DNA from: Escherichia phage EcoM2
DNA: 64,000 nucleotides
Sequence record: PQ818761.1
Direction: 5' to 3' (one strand)
Every line of letters begins with the position of its first letter. Position 1 is the first letter of the stretch. Both the position numbers and the translations under genes were made by a program. The notes beneath the pieces were generated by a model. The model was not told where the DNA came from and searched no databases. It saw only the letters and a list, made by a program, of their open reading frames with translations. This document shows, in pieces, positions 54,727 through 57,296 of the stretch.

Positions 54727-54808
54727 CGGGGCGTATCTCAGCGGTCTTCTAAACCGCCGTTAACCGAGTAAGTGGAGTATGCGGGTTCGAGTCCTGCCGC
54801 CTCGACCA
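54727..54808 (+). tRNA. tRNA-like gene with Arg-type anticodon loop (UCU), non-canonical
   Basis: T-arm GCGGGTTCGAGTCCTGC and acceptor CGGGGCG/CGCCTCG-A-CCA, anticodon-type hairpin GCGGT-CTTCTAA-ACCGC; D-arm too short and variable region about 23 nt, so fold is atypical or the gene is disrupted. Confidence 0.4.
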
Positions 54809-54951
54809 ATTTAGTTAGCAGATTACTTAGACGACCTAAGCGGGTCTTCCTGTAGGGAGGTGGTCTGTATCTCATGTTTTCCAGAACATGTAAATAATCT
54901 GAGAAGGGGCTTTACAGTGTTGAGATAATACGGTAAGCTTCGAATTATAGT

Positions 54952-55034
54952 GTGGGACGATGTTAAGACTCTAAGGCATGAGCAACGGCCTCCAAAACCG
55001 TTTCAAAGGGGTTCAACTCCTCCGTCCCATGCCA
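54952..55034 (+). tRNA. tRNA-Trp (anticodon CCA), enlarged D region
   Basis: Acceptor GTGGGAC/GTCCCAT-G-CCA, anticodon loop CTCCAAA, T-loop GGGGTTCAACTCC; 26 nt between acceptor and anticodon stem. Confidence 0.5.
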
Positions 55035-55047
55035 AAATCTTATTAGG

Positions 55048-55137
55048 GGTAGGTAGCGGCTAATGGCAGCCAAACAGTCTTGAAAACTGTTGCCACTGTA
55101 GAGATACGGTGAGGGTTCGACTCCTTTACTTACCGCC
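55048..55137 (+). tRNA. tRNA-Ser (anticodon UGA)
   Basis: Acceptor GGTAGGT/ACTTACC, anticodon stem ACAGT/ACTGT with loop CTTGAAA, long variable arm, T-arm GAGGGTTCGACTCCTTT; 3' CCA not fully encoded (CCT). Confidence 0.7.
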
Positions 55138-55292
55138 TAATAAGATTTAAAGCCAAGCTTCATTCGGATGTTGCTTTGGTATCCCTCGTGTATTGTCGTA
55201 CACGCACAGTAAAGCACCTAGTAGGTGTCACGGAGAAGAGATAATATCAAGCTCTCCAAAGGTTCTAGTCACCGGATTAAACAAGACTATGC

Positions 55293-55313
55293 AAAGACCT
55301 TTTAGGTCTTTTT
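55293..55313 (+). terminator. rho-independent terminator within tRNA cluster
   Basis: AAAGACCT-ttt-AGGTCTTT hairpin followed by TT. Confidence 0.5.
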
Positions 55314-55391
55314 AGAGGGCTTCTAAGGTTATTACAGCTTGTTGTGGAACCTTGTTGCTTAGGTTCTTAGAAGTTCTCTAAAAAGATTTAA

Positions 55392-55469
55392 TGGGAGATT
55401 GACGGTAATTGGTAAACCTATCTCGCTTAGAACGAGATGTTTGAGGGTTCGAATCCCTTGTCTCCTACC
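55392..55469 (+). tRNA. tRNA-Leu (anticodon UAG), short variable arm
   Basis: Acceptor GGGAGAT/GTCTCCT, anticodon stem TCTCG/CGAGA with loop CTTAGAA, T-arm GAGGGTTCGAATCCCTT, CCA; type I length (78 nt). Confidence 0.6.
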
Positions 55470-55476
55470 AAATTAA

Positions 55477-55553
55477 TGCAGGTGTAGCAAAATGGTTATG
55501 CGGCTGACTCTTAATCAGTAAGACGATGGGTTCAATTCCCTCCACCTGTACCA
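55477..55553 (+). tRNA. tRNA-Lys (anticodon CUU)
   Basis: Acceptor GCAGGTG/CACCTGT, anticodon stem GCTGA/TCAGT with loop CTCTTAA, T-loop GGGTTCAATTCCC, CCA. Confidence 0.7.
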
Positions 55554-55559
55554 AACATT

Positions 55560-55635
55560 GGGGATGTAGTTTACATGGTTAAAACATAAGTTTTGCAAAC
55601 TTAAGTACAGGGTTCAATTCCCTGCTTCTCCACCA
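55560..55635 (+). tRNA. tRNA-Ala (anticodon UGC)
   Basis: Acceptor GGGGATG/CTTCTCC (one mismatch), anticodon stem TAAGT/ACTTA with loop TTTGCAA, T-arm CAGGGTTCAATTCCCTG, CCA. Confidence 0.7.
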
Positions 55636-55641
55636 ATTAGT

Positions 55642-55716
55642 GCATCCATAGTTTAAACGGGAAAATTACAGTCTTCCAAACTGAGGTTGAGGGTTCGATT
55701 CCCTCTGGATGCTCCA
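55642..55716 (+). tRNA. tRNA-Gly (anticodon UCC)
   Basis: Acceptor GCATCCA/TGGATGC, anticodon loop CTTCCAA, T-arm GAGGGTTCGATTCCCTC, CCA. Confidence 0.75.
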
Positions 55717-55730
55717 AATTAAGGTGTGAT

Positions 55731-56144
55731 ATGAAAATATGCAGTACTTGCAGAATACCAAAAGATGAAAGCTTATTCCATAAGAATAAGAACAAAAAAG
55801 ATGGTCTTCAAAGTCAATGCAAAGACTGTGCAAGACTTCGTGATGCAAAGAGTTATCAAGCAAATGATAAAAGGAAAGAGGCTATTAAAAGCACTCGTAA
55901 CGTCAAGAGAGAGTATAACAAGGCTCTAGCTAGAAGGTACAAAGCTTTATGCAAATGTCATATATGTGGTGAGAAAGAACCAGTTGCACTGGATTTACAC
56001 CATACAGACCCTTCCCAGAAAGATTTGAATCCTGCATCACTTTATTCATACTCCACAAAAAGATTAAAAGATGAAATCAGAAAGTGCATTGTCTTGTGCG
56101 CTAACTGCCACAGAAAAGTACATGCTGGTATCATAAAAGTTTAA
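55731..56144 (+). CDS. HNH endonuclease (homing-endonuclease-like) inside tRNA cluster
   Basis: 137 aa with Cys pairs and LHHTDPSQKDLNPAS...CANCHRKVH, an HNH zinc-finger core. Confidence 0.6.
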   Translation: MKICSTCRIPKDESLFHKNKNKKDGLQSQCKDCARLRDAKSYQANDKRKEAIKSTRNVKREYNKALARRYKALCKCHICGEKEPVALDLHHTDPSQKDLNPASLYSYSTKRLKDEIRKCIVLCANCHRKVHAGIIKV

Positions 56145-56145
56145 T

Positions 56146-56222
56146 GCTGCTTTCGTATAATTGGCTATTACACATCCCTTGTAAGGATGGAAATGCAGGT
56201 TCGAGTCCTGTGAGCAGCACCA
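56146..56222 (+). tRNA. tRNA-Thr (anticodon UGU)
   Basis: Acceptor GCTGCTT/GAGCAGC, anticodon stem CATCC/GGATG with loop CTTGTAA, T-arm GCAGGTTCGAGTCCTGT, CCA. Confidence 0.75.
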
Positions 56223-56329
56223 ATTCAGAGGTCAAGTGAAAGACCGCTTTGAGTCAACTGAAGACCGTAACAAATTCCACGGAGTTGAGTTAGCGGCACA
56301 ACTCCAGACCTCTTCTCACACTCGCTTAG

Positions 56330-56394
56330 TTTATATGGTAAAACATCACCCTTACAAGATGAAGAAAAAGGTTCAAGTCCTTTAGTGAGTACCA
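56330..56394 (+). tRNA. tRNA-Val (anticodon UAC)
   Basis: Acceptor ACTCGCT/AGTGAGT, D-stem GTTT/AAAC, anticodon loop CTTACAA, T-arm AAAGGTTCAAGTCCTTT, CCA; only about 65 nt by my coordinates, so boundaries need software confirmation. Confidence 0.55.
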
Positions 56395-56395
56395 T

Positions 56396-56473
56396 GTTCC
56401 AGTATCCCAATTGGCAGAGGATGCAAGCTCAAACCTTGTACTAGTGACGGTTCGAATCCGTCTTGGAACACCA
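56396..56473 (+). tRNA. tRNA-Leu (anticodon CAA), short variable arm
   Basis: Acceptor GTTCCAG/TTGGAAC, anticodon stem GCAAG/CTTGT with loop CTCAAAC, T-arm GACGGTTCGAATCCGTC, CCA. Confidence 0.55.
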
Positions 56474-56478
56474 ATTTT

Positions 56479-56554
56479 GCAGGATTAGTTCAAATGGATA
56501 GAGCAACAGTCTACGAAGCTGTTAATAGGGGTTCGAATCCCTTATCCTGCGCCA
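56479..56554 (+). tRNA. tRNA-Arg (anticodon ACG)
   Basis: Acceptor GCAGGAT/ATCCTGC, D-stem GTTC/GAGC, anticodon stem ACAGT/GCTGT with loop CTACGAA, T-arm AGGGGTTCGAATCCCTT, CCA. Confidence 0.8.
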
Positions 56555-56573
56555 ATTTAAAGAGGCTATTTAG

Positions 56574-57131
56574 ATGAGATATTTGAAGTATGCTTCATGG
56601 ATTTTCTTAGCTTTGTTAGAGCCATTTGCAGCAATCTTAGCAGTTATCTTAGCACCCTTTGTAGTTCCATTCTACAGTGAGAAGAAAGGCCACTTACCTT
56701 TCGGATTCAGGTGGATGGAGACATATGACAACCCAATTGATGGTGATGAAGGTCACGTTAAAAGATGGGCTAAGATTAGAAAGATTGGTAAGCTTGGTGT
56801 CTATATGCAGAGAGTTGGTTGGCTCTGGAGAAACAAAGCTTATAACTTCTCTTACCATGTGTTAGGAAGAGATGTAAAAGATGTTACTAAGTGGAAAGGT
56901 AATATCAATGTAAGTTCTAACCCTGAAGATAATCAGACAGGTTATCTCCTAATGTGGAACAGTAATGCTTGGGGATTATTCGCTTTTATCCCGTCAATTA
57001 AAGTCTTTGGTAAGCAATTCTACTGGAGAATTTATGTTGGGTGGAAACTTAAAAGTGTTGTCCCAGAAGAAAGAGCATTCTCAAGGGGAAGAGTTATGTT
57101 GGCATTCTTTATTCATCCACTGAGAAAGTAA
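56574..57131 (+). CDS. hypothetical membrane protein inside tRNA cluster
   Basis: 185 aa; N-terminal hydrophobic region WIFLALLEPFAAILAVILAPFVVPF. Confidence 0.45.
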   Translation: MRYLKYASWIFLALLEPFAAILAVILAPFVVPFYSEKKGHLPFGFRWMETYDNPIDGDEGHVKRWAKIRKIGKLGVYMQRVGWLWRNKAYNFSYHVLGRDVKDVTKWKGNINVSSNPEDNQTGYLLMWNSNAWGLFAFIPSIKVFGKQFYWRIYVGWKLKSVVPEERAFSRGRVMLAFFIHPLRK

Positions 57132-57139
57132 AGATTTAA

Positions 57140-57215
57140 AGGGGATTAGTTTACAAGGTTAAAACCTCGGTCTTTGAAATCGAAGAAGTTGGTTCAATTC
57201 CAACATCCCCCGCCA
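57140..57215 (+). tRNA. tRNA-Gln (anticodon UUG)
   Basis: Acceptor AGGGGAT/ATCCCCC (A1-C72 unpaired), D-stem GTTT/AAAC, anticodon stem TCGGT/ATCGA with loop CTTTGAA, T-arm GTTGGTTCAATTCCAAC, CCA. Confidence 0.65.
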
Positions 57216-57217
57216 AT

Positions 57218-57296
57218 GCTCCATTACTCCAATTGGCAGAGAGGCCAGACTTAAAATCTGTGTTATGTATCGGTTCGAATCCGATATGGAGTACCA
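57218..57296 (+). tRNA. tRNA-Leu (anticodon UAA), short variable arm
   Basis: Acceptor GCTCCAT/ATGGAGT, anticodon stem CAGA/TCTG with loop CTTAAAA, 7-nt variable region, T-arm ATCGGTTCGAATCCGAT, CCA. Confidence 0.55.

Follow-up and report, generated by a model that had tools for sequence, protein, structure and literature searches.

Do the tRNA genes of irregular shape found in the tRNA cluster of Escherichia phage EcoM2 encode genuine tRNAs, and which host synthetases would charge them? The stretch of DNA analysed here (the window; 64,000 nucleotides of record PQ818761.1) is that of a Felixounavirus and shows 95-98% identity to Felix O1. In the initial annotation, five genes of the cluster were flagged after manual folding, and it was left undecided whether they were truly unusual phage tRNAs or the products of faulty hand folds. 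Both the software folds and the comparison of homologues favoured the former. Neither type II tRNA-Leu structures nor standard D arms were returned: ARAGORN gave class I tRNA-Leu, and the Rfam model deleted the D arm of the Arg gene.

Each of the five flagged tRNA genes is genuine, and over 200 phage genomes carry it with an identity of 95-100%. Compensatory base changes were seen in both the Arg and the Trp elements, which rules against chance. The sequence, folds, covariation, distribution, anticodon restriction and synteny of the odd tRNAs are directly established. With 22 canonical tRNAs, the five odd ones make up decoders for all 20 amino acids in the phage. As judged from sequence, all five would be functional tRNAs of a Felix O1-like phage cluster, charged by the host LeuRS, ArgRS and TrpRS; we assign to this reading a probability of about 0.65.

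Three tRNA-Leu genes without a long variable arm

The three Leu genes, and the neighbours with which they were compared, are the following.

55393-55470, + strand: class I tRNA-Leu(UAG), 78 nt, short variable loop, encoded CCA (ARAGORN; Rfam tRNA 44.5 bits)
56396-56473, + strand: class I tRNA-Leu(CAA), 78 nt, A73, encoded CCA (ARAGORN; Rfam 43.6 bits)
57218-57296, + strand: class I tRNA-Leu(UAA), 79 nt, A73, encoded CCA (ARAGORN; Rfam 47.5 bits)
53526-53613, + strand: tRNA-Tyr, 88 nt, long variable arm kept, internal control (ARAGORN)
55048-55137: tRNA-Ser, 90 nt, long variable arm kept (ARAGORN)
58319-58411: tRNA-Ser, 93 nt, long variable arm kept (ARAGORN)

[quoted passage not shown] All three belong to RF00005, with 43.6-47.5 bits where the gathering score is 29, and none has the variable arm of more than 10 nt, folded as a stem-loop, that characterizes class II tRNA-Leu. 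The complete class I pattern (Leu anticodon, short loop, 3-bp D stem, C13-A14-A15...GGCAGA and A73) was found in the CAA and UAA genes; the UAG gene also follows it, but with UAAUUGGUAAA and an irregular connector, of 3 nt and not 2 nt, ahead of the D stem. Read off the sequence, the latter gene has A73, the D loop AAUUGGUAA, the T loop UUCGAAU and a U as last nucleotide of the variable loop. The D arm is UCC-CAAUUGGCAGA-GGA in Leu(CAA), with a variable loop of 5-6 nt, and CUC-CAAUUGGCAGA-GAG in Leu(UAA), with a variable loop of 7 nt. Leu(CAA) could be aligned with E. coli leuZ, retrieved as the host reference (87 nt), except that about 10 nt are missing from its variable arm. The Leu-type D arm, A73 and U48 are all retained in the three genes.

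Within the cluster, the long arm is missing in Leu only, the Ser and Tyr neighbours retaining theirs. The same bias was observed in the sampled phage clusters, where the ratio of long to short arms was 37:85 for Leu, 87:3 for Ser and 49:0 for Tyr. Short-armed tRNA-Leu is frequent in phages, where it accounts for about 1 in 5 of the UAA genes sampled, and is found in Actinobacteria too. The Leu(UAA) gene of the window occurs with at least 99% identity in 215 phage records and gave zero matches among 5,426 complete E. coli genomes. A set of 97 distinct class I Leu(UAA) genes from phages showed no variation at U8 or A14, and covariation at the Levitt pair, with A15-U48 in 78 genes and G15-C48 in 10.

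These genes resemble the class I tRNA-Leu of S. coelicolor and Actinobacteria (PMC6614811) in their variable loop of 4-7 nt, 3-bp D stem, A73 and otherwise Leu-like body. The D loop CAAYNGGCAGA is common to actinobacterial chromosomal Leu(UAA) genes and to the phage genes. Unlike the S. coelicolor class I tRNA-Leu, those described here are phage-borne, comprise a full set of three isoacceptors and are found with enterobacterial hosts. The tRNA-Leu known from these hosts are themselves all type II.

Probable charging of the three tRNA-Leu

According to a study of E. coli tRNA-Leu (PMC9976931), LeuRS reads A73 and the D/T elbow (A15-U48, G18G19, A20a, U54-A58) and the long arm is dispensable. 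The same study states that tRNA-Leu deprived of its variable and anticodon arms is still leucylated, and that the sequence and folding of the variable arm are uncorrelated with leucylation activity. From the ARAGORN folds and an alignment, the E. coli LeuRS set as given in that study (A73; U8-A14; A15-U48; G18G19; A20a; U54-A58, U55, C56) is present in the three Leu genes. The presence of the determinants is no proof of charging. When the three homologues in the sister phage Sf14 were scored with the tRNAscan-SE isotype models, Leu obtained the top score.

The opposite view would be that in E. coli or Salmonella these do not serve as leucine tRNAs, but remain uncharged or are mischarged, the enterobacterial LeuRS needing a type II body. 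E. coli LeuRS has been described as a type II-only charger, it could not charge S. coelicolor class I tRNA-Leu(CAA) in vitro, and its leucine-specific domain reportedly prefers tRNAs whose variable region is large (PMC6614811). This view has to face the leucylation of the armless E. coli tRNA-Leu and the occurrence of the whole published determinant set in the three genes, together with their conservation (at least 99%) in more than 200 enterobacterial phages and the first rank of Leu in Sf14; we consider it improbable. The three anticodons presumably match none of the anticodon determinants of the Phe, Met, Ile and Val synthetases, which also speaks against it. Most likely, the three class I tRNA-Leu are charged by the host LeuRS. 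An E. coli LeuRS with no need of the long arm would explain why the arm was lost in phage Leu and not in Ser or Tyr. Charging of class I tRNA-Leu in vivo by an enterobacterial LeuRS would be contrary to the current in vitro view.

An Arg(UCU)-like element with a long-range D-like stem

The layout of the Arg element is as follows.

54727-54808, + strand: non-canonical tRNA-Arg(UCU) (Rfam tRNA 31.7 bits, D arm deleted; covariation; RNAalifold)
54727-54733 / 54798-54804, + strand: acceptor stem
Between acceptor stem and D-like strand, + strand: U8 A9
54737-54739, + strand: D-like long-range stem, 5' strand CUC (alignment A2 and 74-sequence set)
54741-54757, + strand: anticodon arm (anticodon 54748-54750)
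54766-54768, + strand: D-like long-range stem, 3' strand GAG (covariation, RNAalifold)
54781-54797, + strand: T arm
54805, + strand: discriminator A, followed by CCA at 54806-54808

The element scores above the RF00005 gathering score of 29 (31.7 bits), its D arm being counted as a deletion. That scarcely any room is left for a D arm, as the manual fold had indicated, was confirmed by the Rfam alignment, in which 4 nt occupy the 15 D-arm positions of the model. The 23-nt variable region of that fold was correct as regards the extra length (a 20-nt insert in the Rfam alignment) and mistaken as regards a variable arm, because GAG pairs with the D-remnant CUC and the remainder is D-loop-like. An invariant U (54736), just 5' of CUC, lies opposite a second invariant U (54769). 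The GAG strand is preceded by a conserved bulge CGUUAACC (54758-54765) and followed by the D-loop-like AAGUGGAGUAU (54770-54780), the D-loop-like AAGUGGAG coming after the long-range stem. In alignment A2, AA 54770-54771 and UGGAGUAU (54773-54780) are invariant and 54772 is variable; the invariance of UGGAGUAU is partly imposed, since all homologues were retrieved by a pattern or BLAST query containing it.

In the 49 sequences of alignment A2, 93.4% of cells were paired, and the covariation score was 0.764 versus 0.189 for shuffled sequences. Pairs 11-42, 12-41 and 13-40 were formed in 49/49 sequences, with at most four pair types per position. Compensatory change was detected in 17 of the 21 pairs, the long-range stem contained no unpaired cells, and RNAalifold independently reached the same fold, this stem included. 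The minimum-free-energy fold of the single sequence was no better than that of shuffled ones (z = 0.04), and ARAGORN did not call the element, even at relaxed thresholds. A 3-bp Watson-Crick stem with a U.U pair, and sometimes a fifth pair, encloses the anticodon arm. This stem would restore an in-line 5+4 bp anticodon-side stack, and an 11-nt strand with the D-loop-like A-A-N-U-G-G-A links it to the T arm.

In the D-arm-lacking tRNAs of mitochondria (mammalian mt-tRNA-Ser(AGY), nematode mt-tRNAs), a lengthened anticodon-side helix preserves the overall span. As in such tRNAs (PMC7609411), the Arg element is without a D hairpin and keeps its acceptor/T branch and anticodon arm. Unlike them, the phage class has a full length of 79 nt, a canonical T loop, a D-loop-like GG strand and a D-like stem formed by long-range pairing around the anticodon arm. 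Assignment to the mitochondrial type was rejected, since the 4-nt remnant pairs in a covarying long-range stem, and the likeness is functional only.

Homologues amounted to 74 distinct sequences, which represent six or more phage lineages. In 74/74 the stem is paired, with 10 sequence variants. The full-length element was found at 82-90% identity in unrelated phage families, including Streptomyces phages. ARAGORN misses 80 of the 83 copies of this class, which are seldom annotated in GenBank records (some such loci are labelled tRNA-OTHER or pseudo), and other tRNA genes lie within 2.5 kb of 73 of the 83. The anticodons are UCU (68), CCU (3), ACG (2) and UCG (1), all of them Arg.

We take the identity set of E. 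coli ArgRS to be A20, C35, U/G36 and A/G73. C35 and U/G36 were present in 74/74 homologues, and the discriminator was G in 41 and A in 28 (R73 in 69/74). An invariant A follows the GG of UGGAG (alignment column 50), where A20 would sit; the strand is topologically not a D loop, and the equivalence with A20 is a sequence analogy only.

In phages pinkbiff and Sf17, the same slot is occupied by a canonical tRNA-Arg(UCU), and canonical and non-canonical alleles alternate among Felixounavirus genomes. The pinkbiff allele, of the argU type, shares with the Arg element the slot, the anticodon loop CUUCUAA, the 7/5 branch and the encoded CCA; unlike the element, it has a normal D hairpin, and the two body sequences are unrelated. 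The element is usually the sole AGA decoder of its cluster. In the window, ARAGORN found no second AGA decoder, and AGA accounts for 29% of the Arg codons in long ORFs. The best reading is that the Arg gene is a member of a distinct, widespread phage tRNA-Arg class. It would decode AGA, replacing the canonical tRNA-Arg(UCU) at the slot of the sister phages.

A Trp(CCA)-like gene with an expanded connector

The second element missed by default ARAGORN comprises the features below.

54953-55035, + strand: tRNA-Trp(CCA)-like gene (covariation; ARAGORN mitochondrial mode)
54953-54959 / 55025-55031, + strand: acceptor stem
54960-54968, + strand: 9-nt connector GAUGUUAAG (usual: 2 nt)
54969-54984, + strand: D arm
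54986-55002, + strand: anticodon arm (anticodon 54993-54995)
55008-55024, + strand: T arm
55032, + strand: G73, followed by CCA at 55033-55035

The over-long region described by hand is real (26 nt from acceptor to anticodon stem). The gene starts at 54953 and not at 54952, and the excess resides in the 9-nt acceptor-D connector, not in the D loop. Only the mitochondrial mode of ARAGORN called the gene; the default mode misses all copies. It reached none of the Rfam tRNA thresholds: the best match was tRNA-Sec, with 23 bits where the gathering score is 47, and RF00005 was not listed, lower-scoring models of the same clan being suppressed. The gene is present in 235 Ounavirinae records, annotated as a tRNA in none.

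Covariation supports all four stems, which are kept across Ounavirinae genera: 7 of 21 pairs were changed on both sides (in nine sequences only), versus none in slid controls. No variation was seen in the CCA anticodon, G73 or the CCA end, and three A.C or C.A mismatches are conserved (10-25, 31-39, 49-65). The E. coli TrpRS identity set presumably consists of the CCA anticodon, G73, A1-U72, G2-C71 and G3-C70. Of these, the gene has CCA, G73 and G3-C70; at 2-71 it shows U-A in place of G-C, and at 1-72 the window has G.U where most relatives have A-U. Of the 20 amino acids, the 25 ARAGORN calls leave out Trp only, and so does the Sf14 set; as a tRNA with four arms and a connector expanded to 9 nt, the gene would supply this missing 20th amino acid. 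The aminoacylation identity of the five genes, initially called unclear, is narrowed in part by the presence of the E. coli Leu and Arg elements and of part of the Trp set.

A YrlA-like element in the same cluster

A candidate YrlA-like tRNA mimic was noticed in the same tRNA cluster, at 53870-54010. YrlA-type Y RNAs present a T arm, a closed acceptor-like stem-loop and a D arm, in this order, with a long closing stem and a Ro60/TROVE neighbour (PMC4201824). The YrlA module order and the closing stem can apparently be read in the element; the Rfam search gave no YrlA match. The adjoining ORF matches DUF2828/DUF7788 and PHROG 850 'RNA-binding protein', its kinship with Ro60 being putative.

Alternative readings of the Arg-like and Trp-like RNAs

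Loci that default ARAGORN does not call, that some records label tRNA-OTHER or pseudo and of which one, the Arg element, has an unexceptional minimum-free-energy fold might be suspected of being tRNA pseudogenes in decay, or artefacts of the manual folds. Decay is hardly compatible with an Arg element kept at full length across unrelated families and Streptomyces phages, with compensatory change in most of its pairs and a long-range stem devoid of unpaired cells, nor with a Trp-like gene retained across genera with seven covarying pairs. It was already contradicted by the diversity of the Arg homologues (74 distinct, 10 stem variants), which are not recent copies of one sequence, and we give it almost no credence.

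The two RNAs could also be non-translating tRNA mimics, acting as decoys or sponges for tRNA-targeting nucleases (colicin D-like, PARIS, retron or PrrC-type) or as ligands of phage or host RNA-binding proteins. Phage tRNAs are known to counter tRNA-cleaving defences, the Arg and Trp folds are abnormal for bacterial translation, and a separate tRNA mimic, YrlA-like and next to an 'RNA-binding protein' gene, apparently lies in this cluster. As colicin D is known to target all tRNA-Arg isoacceptors, a decoy could keep Arg anticodons too. Yet the 7/5 acceptor-T branch is intact, CCA is encoded, the discriminator is R73 or G73 and the anticodon loop is a canonical 7-nt one. Anticodon drift stays inside the Arg codon boxes, the two-step change to ACG included; the Arg element stands in for canonical tRNA-Arg(UCU) at the same slot, mostly as the one AGA decoder of its cluster, and the Trp-like gene supplies precisely the absent 20th amino acid. 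A nuclease-resistant, still-translating replacement fits the data at least as well. Mimicry seems unlikely. For the odd tRNAs, read as functional, we infer expression, charging and ribosomal use, and also the selective reason: synthetase tolerance is likely, possibly with evasion of host tRNA-targeting nucleases.

Discussion

A broader proposal, to which we give slightly less than even odds, is that the Arg element represents a previously undescribed fold in bacterial translation, spread horizontally, and that enterobacterial LeuRS charges class I tRNA-Leu in vivo. The anticodon arm would be nested in the D stem, and the displaced D-loop strand would rebuild the elbow. The Arg RNA would be charged by the host ArgRS and taken by EF-Tu and the 70S ribosome; we know of no bacterial EF-Tu or ribosome that accepts a tRNA without a D hairpin like the Arg fold. 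Horizontal spread would have taken place among unrelated virulent phages, often beside HNH homing endonuclease genes, and the remodelled D side may evade host nucleases or modification enzymes disabling canonical tRNA-Arg.

Bacterial cytoplasmic tRNAs are all held to be full cloverleaves (PMC5389517). Like the allo-tRNAs and irregular 8/4 and 9/3 cloverleaves of Mukai et al. (PMC5389517), the present genes are natural non-canonical tRNAs, some in phage clusters, discovered by comparative analysis and missed or misread by standard tools. In allo-tRNAs the acceptor and T stem lengths are altered and the D hairpin is kept, whereas here the branch is a standard 7/5 and the change is on the side of the D arm and connector. 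The T5 'tRNA-like stable RNAs' RNA1, RNA2 and RNA3 are likewise unclassified tRNA-like genes amid phage tRNAs and HNH endonuclease genes; compared by annotation alone, they differ in being 73-144 nt long, with no assigned anticodon or function.

The Arg fold occurs in many unrelated phages and yet escapes standard gene finders. With 80 of 83 Arg-class and all Trp-like copies escaping ARAGORN, phage tRNA counts, and claims such as '19 amino acids covered', are systematically low. The textbook rule makes all tRNAs uniform cloverleaves, those of mitochondria excepted; the Arg class, under strong structural selection in enterobacterial and Streptomyces phages, would be a gap in that rule. If true, a tRNA-Arg class of 79 nt that has no D hairpin would widen the shapes accepted by bacterial ArgRS, EF-Tu and ribosomes, and its fold would give a new scaffold for orthogonal tRNA design. 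The class I tRNA-Leu of coliphages offer a test of whether E. coli LeuRS truly requires a type II body, and the remodelled D regions of phage tRNAs bear on the conflict with host tRNA-cleaving defence systems.

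Organization of the tRNA cluster

Around the five genes, 3.2 kb match Salmonella phage Felix O1 and more than 180 other Felixounavirus genomes at 95-98% identity. ARAGORN placed 25 tRNA genes in 53033-58491, on the + strand; an HNH endonuclease ORF and two ORFs of unknown function (DUF7338 and DUF7217) lie among them. Annotations of Felix O1, phage pinkbiff and Mooglevirus Sf17 show a matching gene order. These 25 genes represent 19 amino acids, tryptophan being the sole one absent.

Features of the cluster
54727-54808, + strand, Arg(UCU)-like tRNA (Rfam, 31.7 bits, marginal pass)
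54953-55035, + strand, tRNA-Trp(CCA)-like (covariation; ARAGORN mitochondrial mode)
55393-55470, + strand, tRNA-Leu(UAG) (ARAGORN)
55731-56144, HNH endonuclease ORF, among the tRNA genes
56396-56473, + strand, tRNA-Leu(CAA) (ARAGORN)
57218-57296, + strand, tRNA-Leu(UAA) (ARAGORN)

Leucine tRNAs with a short variable loop

The three tRNAs with Leu anticodons had been described in the initial annotation as lacking a long variable arm, and ARAGORN likewise folded them as class I tRNAs of 78-79 nt (encoded CCA included), with a D stem of 3 bp and a variable loop of 4-7 nt. All three passed the Rfam tRNA threshold. In an alignment with leuZ of E. coli (87 nt), they matched over their full length except that about 10 nt are missing at the variable arm, and A14, A15, U16, G18 and G19 were invariant. 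They also carry A73, a T loop UUCGAAU and a variable loop ending in U, the partner of A15. In tRNA-Leu(UAG), the spacer between acceptor and D stem (55393-55404) is 3 nt (UGA) instead of 2, and the D-stem register is ambiguous (CGG/CCU or GGU/ACC).

The long arm is used by SerRS and by bacterial TyrRS, and the neighbours in the cluster keep it (Tyr, 88 nt; Ser, 90 and 93 nt by ARAGORN). In the phage tRNA clusters sampled, short- versus long-armed genes numbered 85 versus 37 for Leu, 3 versus 87 for Ser and 0 versus 49 for Tyr. This restriction of arm loss to Leu would be explained by synthetase tolerance. Viral contigs were scanned for a UAA anticodon loop followed by a T loop at close spacing and, among the 120 matches listed, at least 111 were called tRNA-Leu of 73-79 nt by ARAGORN, 108 of them distinct. 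When either spacing was allowed, about 25 of 120 matches listed in viral contigs were short-armed, and short spacing was found in 11 of about 120 matches listed in bacterial and archaeal genomes; these ratios of type I to type II are rough, being taken from the matches listed, with the genome sample split by length. Nine of the 11 genomic matches were tRNA-Leu of 74-76 nt by ARAGORN, several of them in Actinobacteria.

Short-armed Leu genes are marked by C13 and GGCAGA, long-armed ones by G/A13 and GGUAGA. Covariation at the Levitt pair was observed in 97 short-armed genes (A15-U48 in 78, G15-C48 in 10), among which U8 and A14 were invariant. Further Leu genes of class I are carried by an Aeromonas T5-like phage, a Lactobacillus herellevirus and a Streptomyces phage, and long-armed ones by T5, a phi92-like phage and a Klebsiella vequintavirus. 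In Streptomyces phage BoomerJR (locus L013, 729-898), two tRNA-Leu(UAG) genes are neighbours, one short-armed (76 nt) and one intermediate (82 nt).

One bacterium and mitochondria are the known sources of class I tRNA-Leu, and the tRNA-Leu of coliphage hosts is of type II. The tRNA-Leu(CAA) of S. coelicolor, a class I molecule charged by its own LeuRS, is the precedent for the phage genes; the reported inability of E. coli LeuRS to charge it is the main evidence against host charging of the phage Leu tRNAs (PMC6614811). Against this failure are set the conservation (at least 99%) of the three genes in 215 enterobacterial phage records, the lack of any blastn match to the Leu(UAA) gene in 5,426 E. 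coli genomes, and Leu as the top tRNAscan-SE isotype of their homologues in phage Sf14 (PMC12482277). Furthermore, a recent review (PMC9976931) gives as E. coli leucine determinants exactly the elements seen in the three phage genes, reports no correlation of charging with the sequence or folding of the long arm, and describes tRNA-Leu still charged without its anticodon and variable arms. Judged from their sequences, the three class I Leu genes very likely encode working tRNAs charged by the host. A literature search without most subscription journals turned up no description of phage class I tRNA-Leu, and its prevalence in phages, including coliphages whose hosts have type II molecules, appears to be unreported in the literature searched.

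Fold of the arginine element

The Arg(UCU)-like element was not called by ARAGORN at any threshold tried, including -ps, -ps80 and -ps90 with introns. In the Rfam alignment, 4 nt cover the 15 positions of the D arm and 20 nt are inserted in the variable region. The D arm that had been noted as having almost no room is absent from this alignment. The supposed 23-nt variable region resolves into a bulge of 8 conserved nt, the 3' strand of a stem and an 11-nt strand. Because the Leu genes fold as class I and the Arg D arm is deleted in the Rfam model, the type II Leu structures and standard D arms that would have refuted the initial annotation were obtained with neither ARAGORN nor Rfam.

An alignment of 49 sequences of this class, with gaps in one column only, gave the following layout.

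5' part: acceptor (7) - U A - U C N N - N - anticodon arm - Y R U Y A A N N
3' part: N N G U - A A N U G G A G U A U - T arm - acceptor (7) - R - (CCA)

The CNN following U10 pairs with the NNG preceding U43, so that the long-range stem encloses the anticodon arm. Pair 11-42 is C-G in 48 sequences and U-A in 1; pair 12-41 is U-A in 28, G-C in 13, A-U in 7 and C-G in 1; pair 13-40 is C-G in 41, G-C in 5 and U-A in 3, with zero unpaired cells in the stem. For the whole structure, 93.4% of cells were paired versus 64% in shuffles, and the covariation score was 0.764 versus 0.189 in shuffles (reached by 0 of 500) and at most 0.157 in slid registers. Covariation excludes the view that the genes are pseudogenes. 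RNAalifold predicted the long-range stem without prompting, and by mutual information pair 12-41 ranked fourth among all column pairs; an extra pair 14-39 (A.C, C.A, A-U, C-G, U.G) was also suggested. With metagenome sequences included, the stem was paired in 74 of 74 sequences, in 10 sequence variants. The minimum-free-energy fold of the single sequence missed the stem and was no better than shuffles; the proposed fold is therefore based on the comparative data.

In the 11-nt strand, A-A-N-U-G-G-A resembles a D loop (A14, R15, G18G19, A20). The long-range stem may stack in line on the anticodon stem, which would restore an arm of normal length (5+4 bp), while the 11-nt strand would rebuild the elbow. 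Other arrangements were rejected. If the D remnant were paired with the second GAGU (54775-78), a variable 5' strand would face columns that do not vary. With an intron, a giant D loop or a circular permutation of the Arg gene there is no workable anticodon arm, and its termini already lie at the acceptor stem. Phage D-side variants and this fold are both absent from two reviews or surveys that deal with non-canonical tRNAs, and a search without most subscription journals found no paper describing it.

Distribution and probable role of the arginine element

At the Arg slot, phage pinkbiff (locus L001:2827-2902) carries an ordinary 76-nt tRNA-Arg(UCU) with an unrelated body and near-identical flanks, and the canonical and non-canonical alleles alternate among Felixounavirus genomes. 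This amounts to an allele replacement at a single slot. Full-length copies of the element, 82-90% identical, were found in T5-like Klebsiella/Serratia, jumbo Asteriusvirus-like, phi92-like and rV5-like phages, and a partial match in Streptomyces phages; these copies lie within tRNA clusters and are almost never annotated. blastn gave no match to the Arg gene in 5,426 E. coli genomes.

Scanning viral contigs, and later metagenomes, for the exact motif brought the family to 74 distinct parsed sequences. Of 83 copies, 73 have other tRNA genes within 2.5 kb and only 3 are called by ARAGORN; co-resident canonical Arg genes are mostly ACG. The covariance model of the alignment (R1) detected one extra, divergent member only in 100 independent phage loci. 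Such a member, at L163:6414-6488 (57 bits with R1), has a UCU anticodon, a stem CGG/CCG, a bulge of 4 nt instead of 8, and AAUGGAACGAU in place of AAKUGGAGUAU, indicating that exact-motif scans undercount the family.

The anticodons of the 74 sequences are UCU (68), CCU (3), ACG (2) and UCG (1), all Arg. Only 2 of the 9 single-base neighbours of UCU are Arg, and only those two occur, plus the double change to ACG. The main rival explanation, that such genes are non-translating mimics or decoys, is weakened by this confinement to Arg anticodons and by the replacement of a canonical allele at the Arg slot. C35, U/G36 and the discriminator, a purine in 69 of 74 sequences, match ArgRS identity. 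AGA makes up 29% of Arg codons in the long ORFs of the window (RSCU 1.76), in which ARAGORN found no second AGA decoder. The Arg element is probably a working tRNA charged by the host.

An HNH endonuclease gene lies directly downstream of the Arg-class gene in the loci of phages Sugarland (L007:2591-3100), Kamaji (L012:1584-2147) and Felix O1 (L002:2909-3301); the first two proteins are 51% identical and that of Felix O1 is unrelated. The HNH ORF at 55731-56144, in the tRNA-Gly/tRNA-Thr interval, is missing from pinkbiff. Homing endonucleases may carry tRNA alleles between phages, and the HNH neighbours hint at spread by homing.

The tryptophan-like tRNA

Trp(CCA) was called solely in the mitochondrial mode of ARAGORN and was below threshold in Rfam; an 88-nt ARAGORN call across the locus at -ps80 was discarded as implausible. 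Conserved copies of the element are present in 235 Ounavirinae records, none of which annotates it as a tRNA. Its counterparts in Mooglevirus, Suspvirus and Pectobacterium phage Arno18 resolve it as a four-armed cloverleaf. The D arm, ACUC-UAAGGCAU-GAGC, changes from CUC/GAG to CAC/GUG, the anticodon stem from ACGG/CCGU to UAAG/CUUA and UAGG/CCUA, and T-stem pair 50-64 from G-C to U-A; acceptor pair 1-72 is G.U, A-U or G-C. In nine sequences, 7 of 21 pairs showed two-sided changes, versus none in slid registers. An over-long D region had been noted for this gene, which starts at 54953 and not 54952; the additional length lies not in the D loop but in a conserved 9-nt connector, GAUGUUAAG, in place of the usual U8 and N9. 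GUUAA is common to this connector and the Arg-class bulge.

No sequence departs from the CCA anticodon, G73 or the CCA end. That this gene completes the amino-acid set also speaks against mimics or decoys; the tRNA set of phage Sf14 covers 19 amino acids (PMC12482277). Three conserved A.C-type mismatches and U2-A71 lower our confidence, and we lean only slightly towards a working tRNA charged by the host.

A scan with GAUGUUAAG gave tRNA-like matches in Ounavirinae only, except one gene with a Lys(UUU) anticodon; all remaining matches looked random. This gene, at about 515-605 of the unrelated viral contig L146 (IMGVR_UViG_3300038660_000290), has the connector after a 7-bp acceptor stem, a UUU anticodon loop and U as discriminator, so that expanded connectors may extend beyond Trp.

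Other tRNA-like RNAs

In the tRNA-Asp/tRNA-Lys gap, 53870-54010 encodes a tRNA-like module with circularly permuted parts; AGACCGTT (53880-87) and AACGGTCT (53999-54006) pair to close it.

Parts of the YrlA-like module
53931-47, T arm
53948-65, closed acceptor-like stem-loop
53968-84, D arm

The order T arm, loop-capped acceptor-like stem, D arm is that of YrlA-type Y RNAs, and compensatory changes keep the acceptor-like stem in Sf17. Rfam gave a partial tRNA match only (22 bits). About 1 kb upstream lies an 'RNA-binding protein' ORF (51452-52867, 471 aa, DUF2828 + DUF7788, PHROG 850), for which a PDB sequence search gave no match.

In the ORF-free gaps 54390-54726 (337 nt) and 55138-55392 (255 nt), Rfam found only weak tmRNA-like or permuted-tmRNA matches (16-20 bits). 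Repeated motifs of the CTTTAAAG type stand upstream of several tRNA blocks. These motifs and gaps could hold promoters, processing sites or additional structured RNAs. Viral contigs L113 and L124 carry seven copies of a short tRNA-like RNA (TGGAGTATG..GGTTCRA pattern) with an acceptor ACUCUA/UAGAGU, a D-arm-like hairpin GAUA-UAAUGGGAU-UAUC, a UGGAGUAU strand and a T arm; an anticodon arm is not evident in it.

Significance of the five genes

The set is one of tRNA variants, and five working tRNAs charged by host enzymes is the best-supported reading of the sequence evidence. Host defence nucleases deplete specific tRNAs, and phage tRNAs differ from those of the host around the D loop (PMC12475279). 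Nuclease escape would therefore be a reasonable motive for the remodelling, by which the Arg and Trp tRNAs may evade host nucleases that target tRNA.
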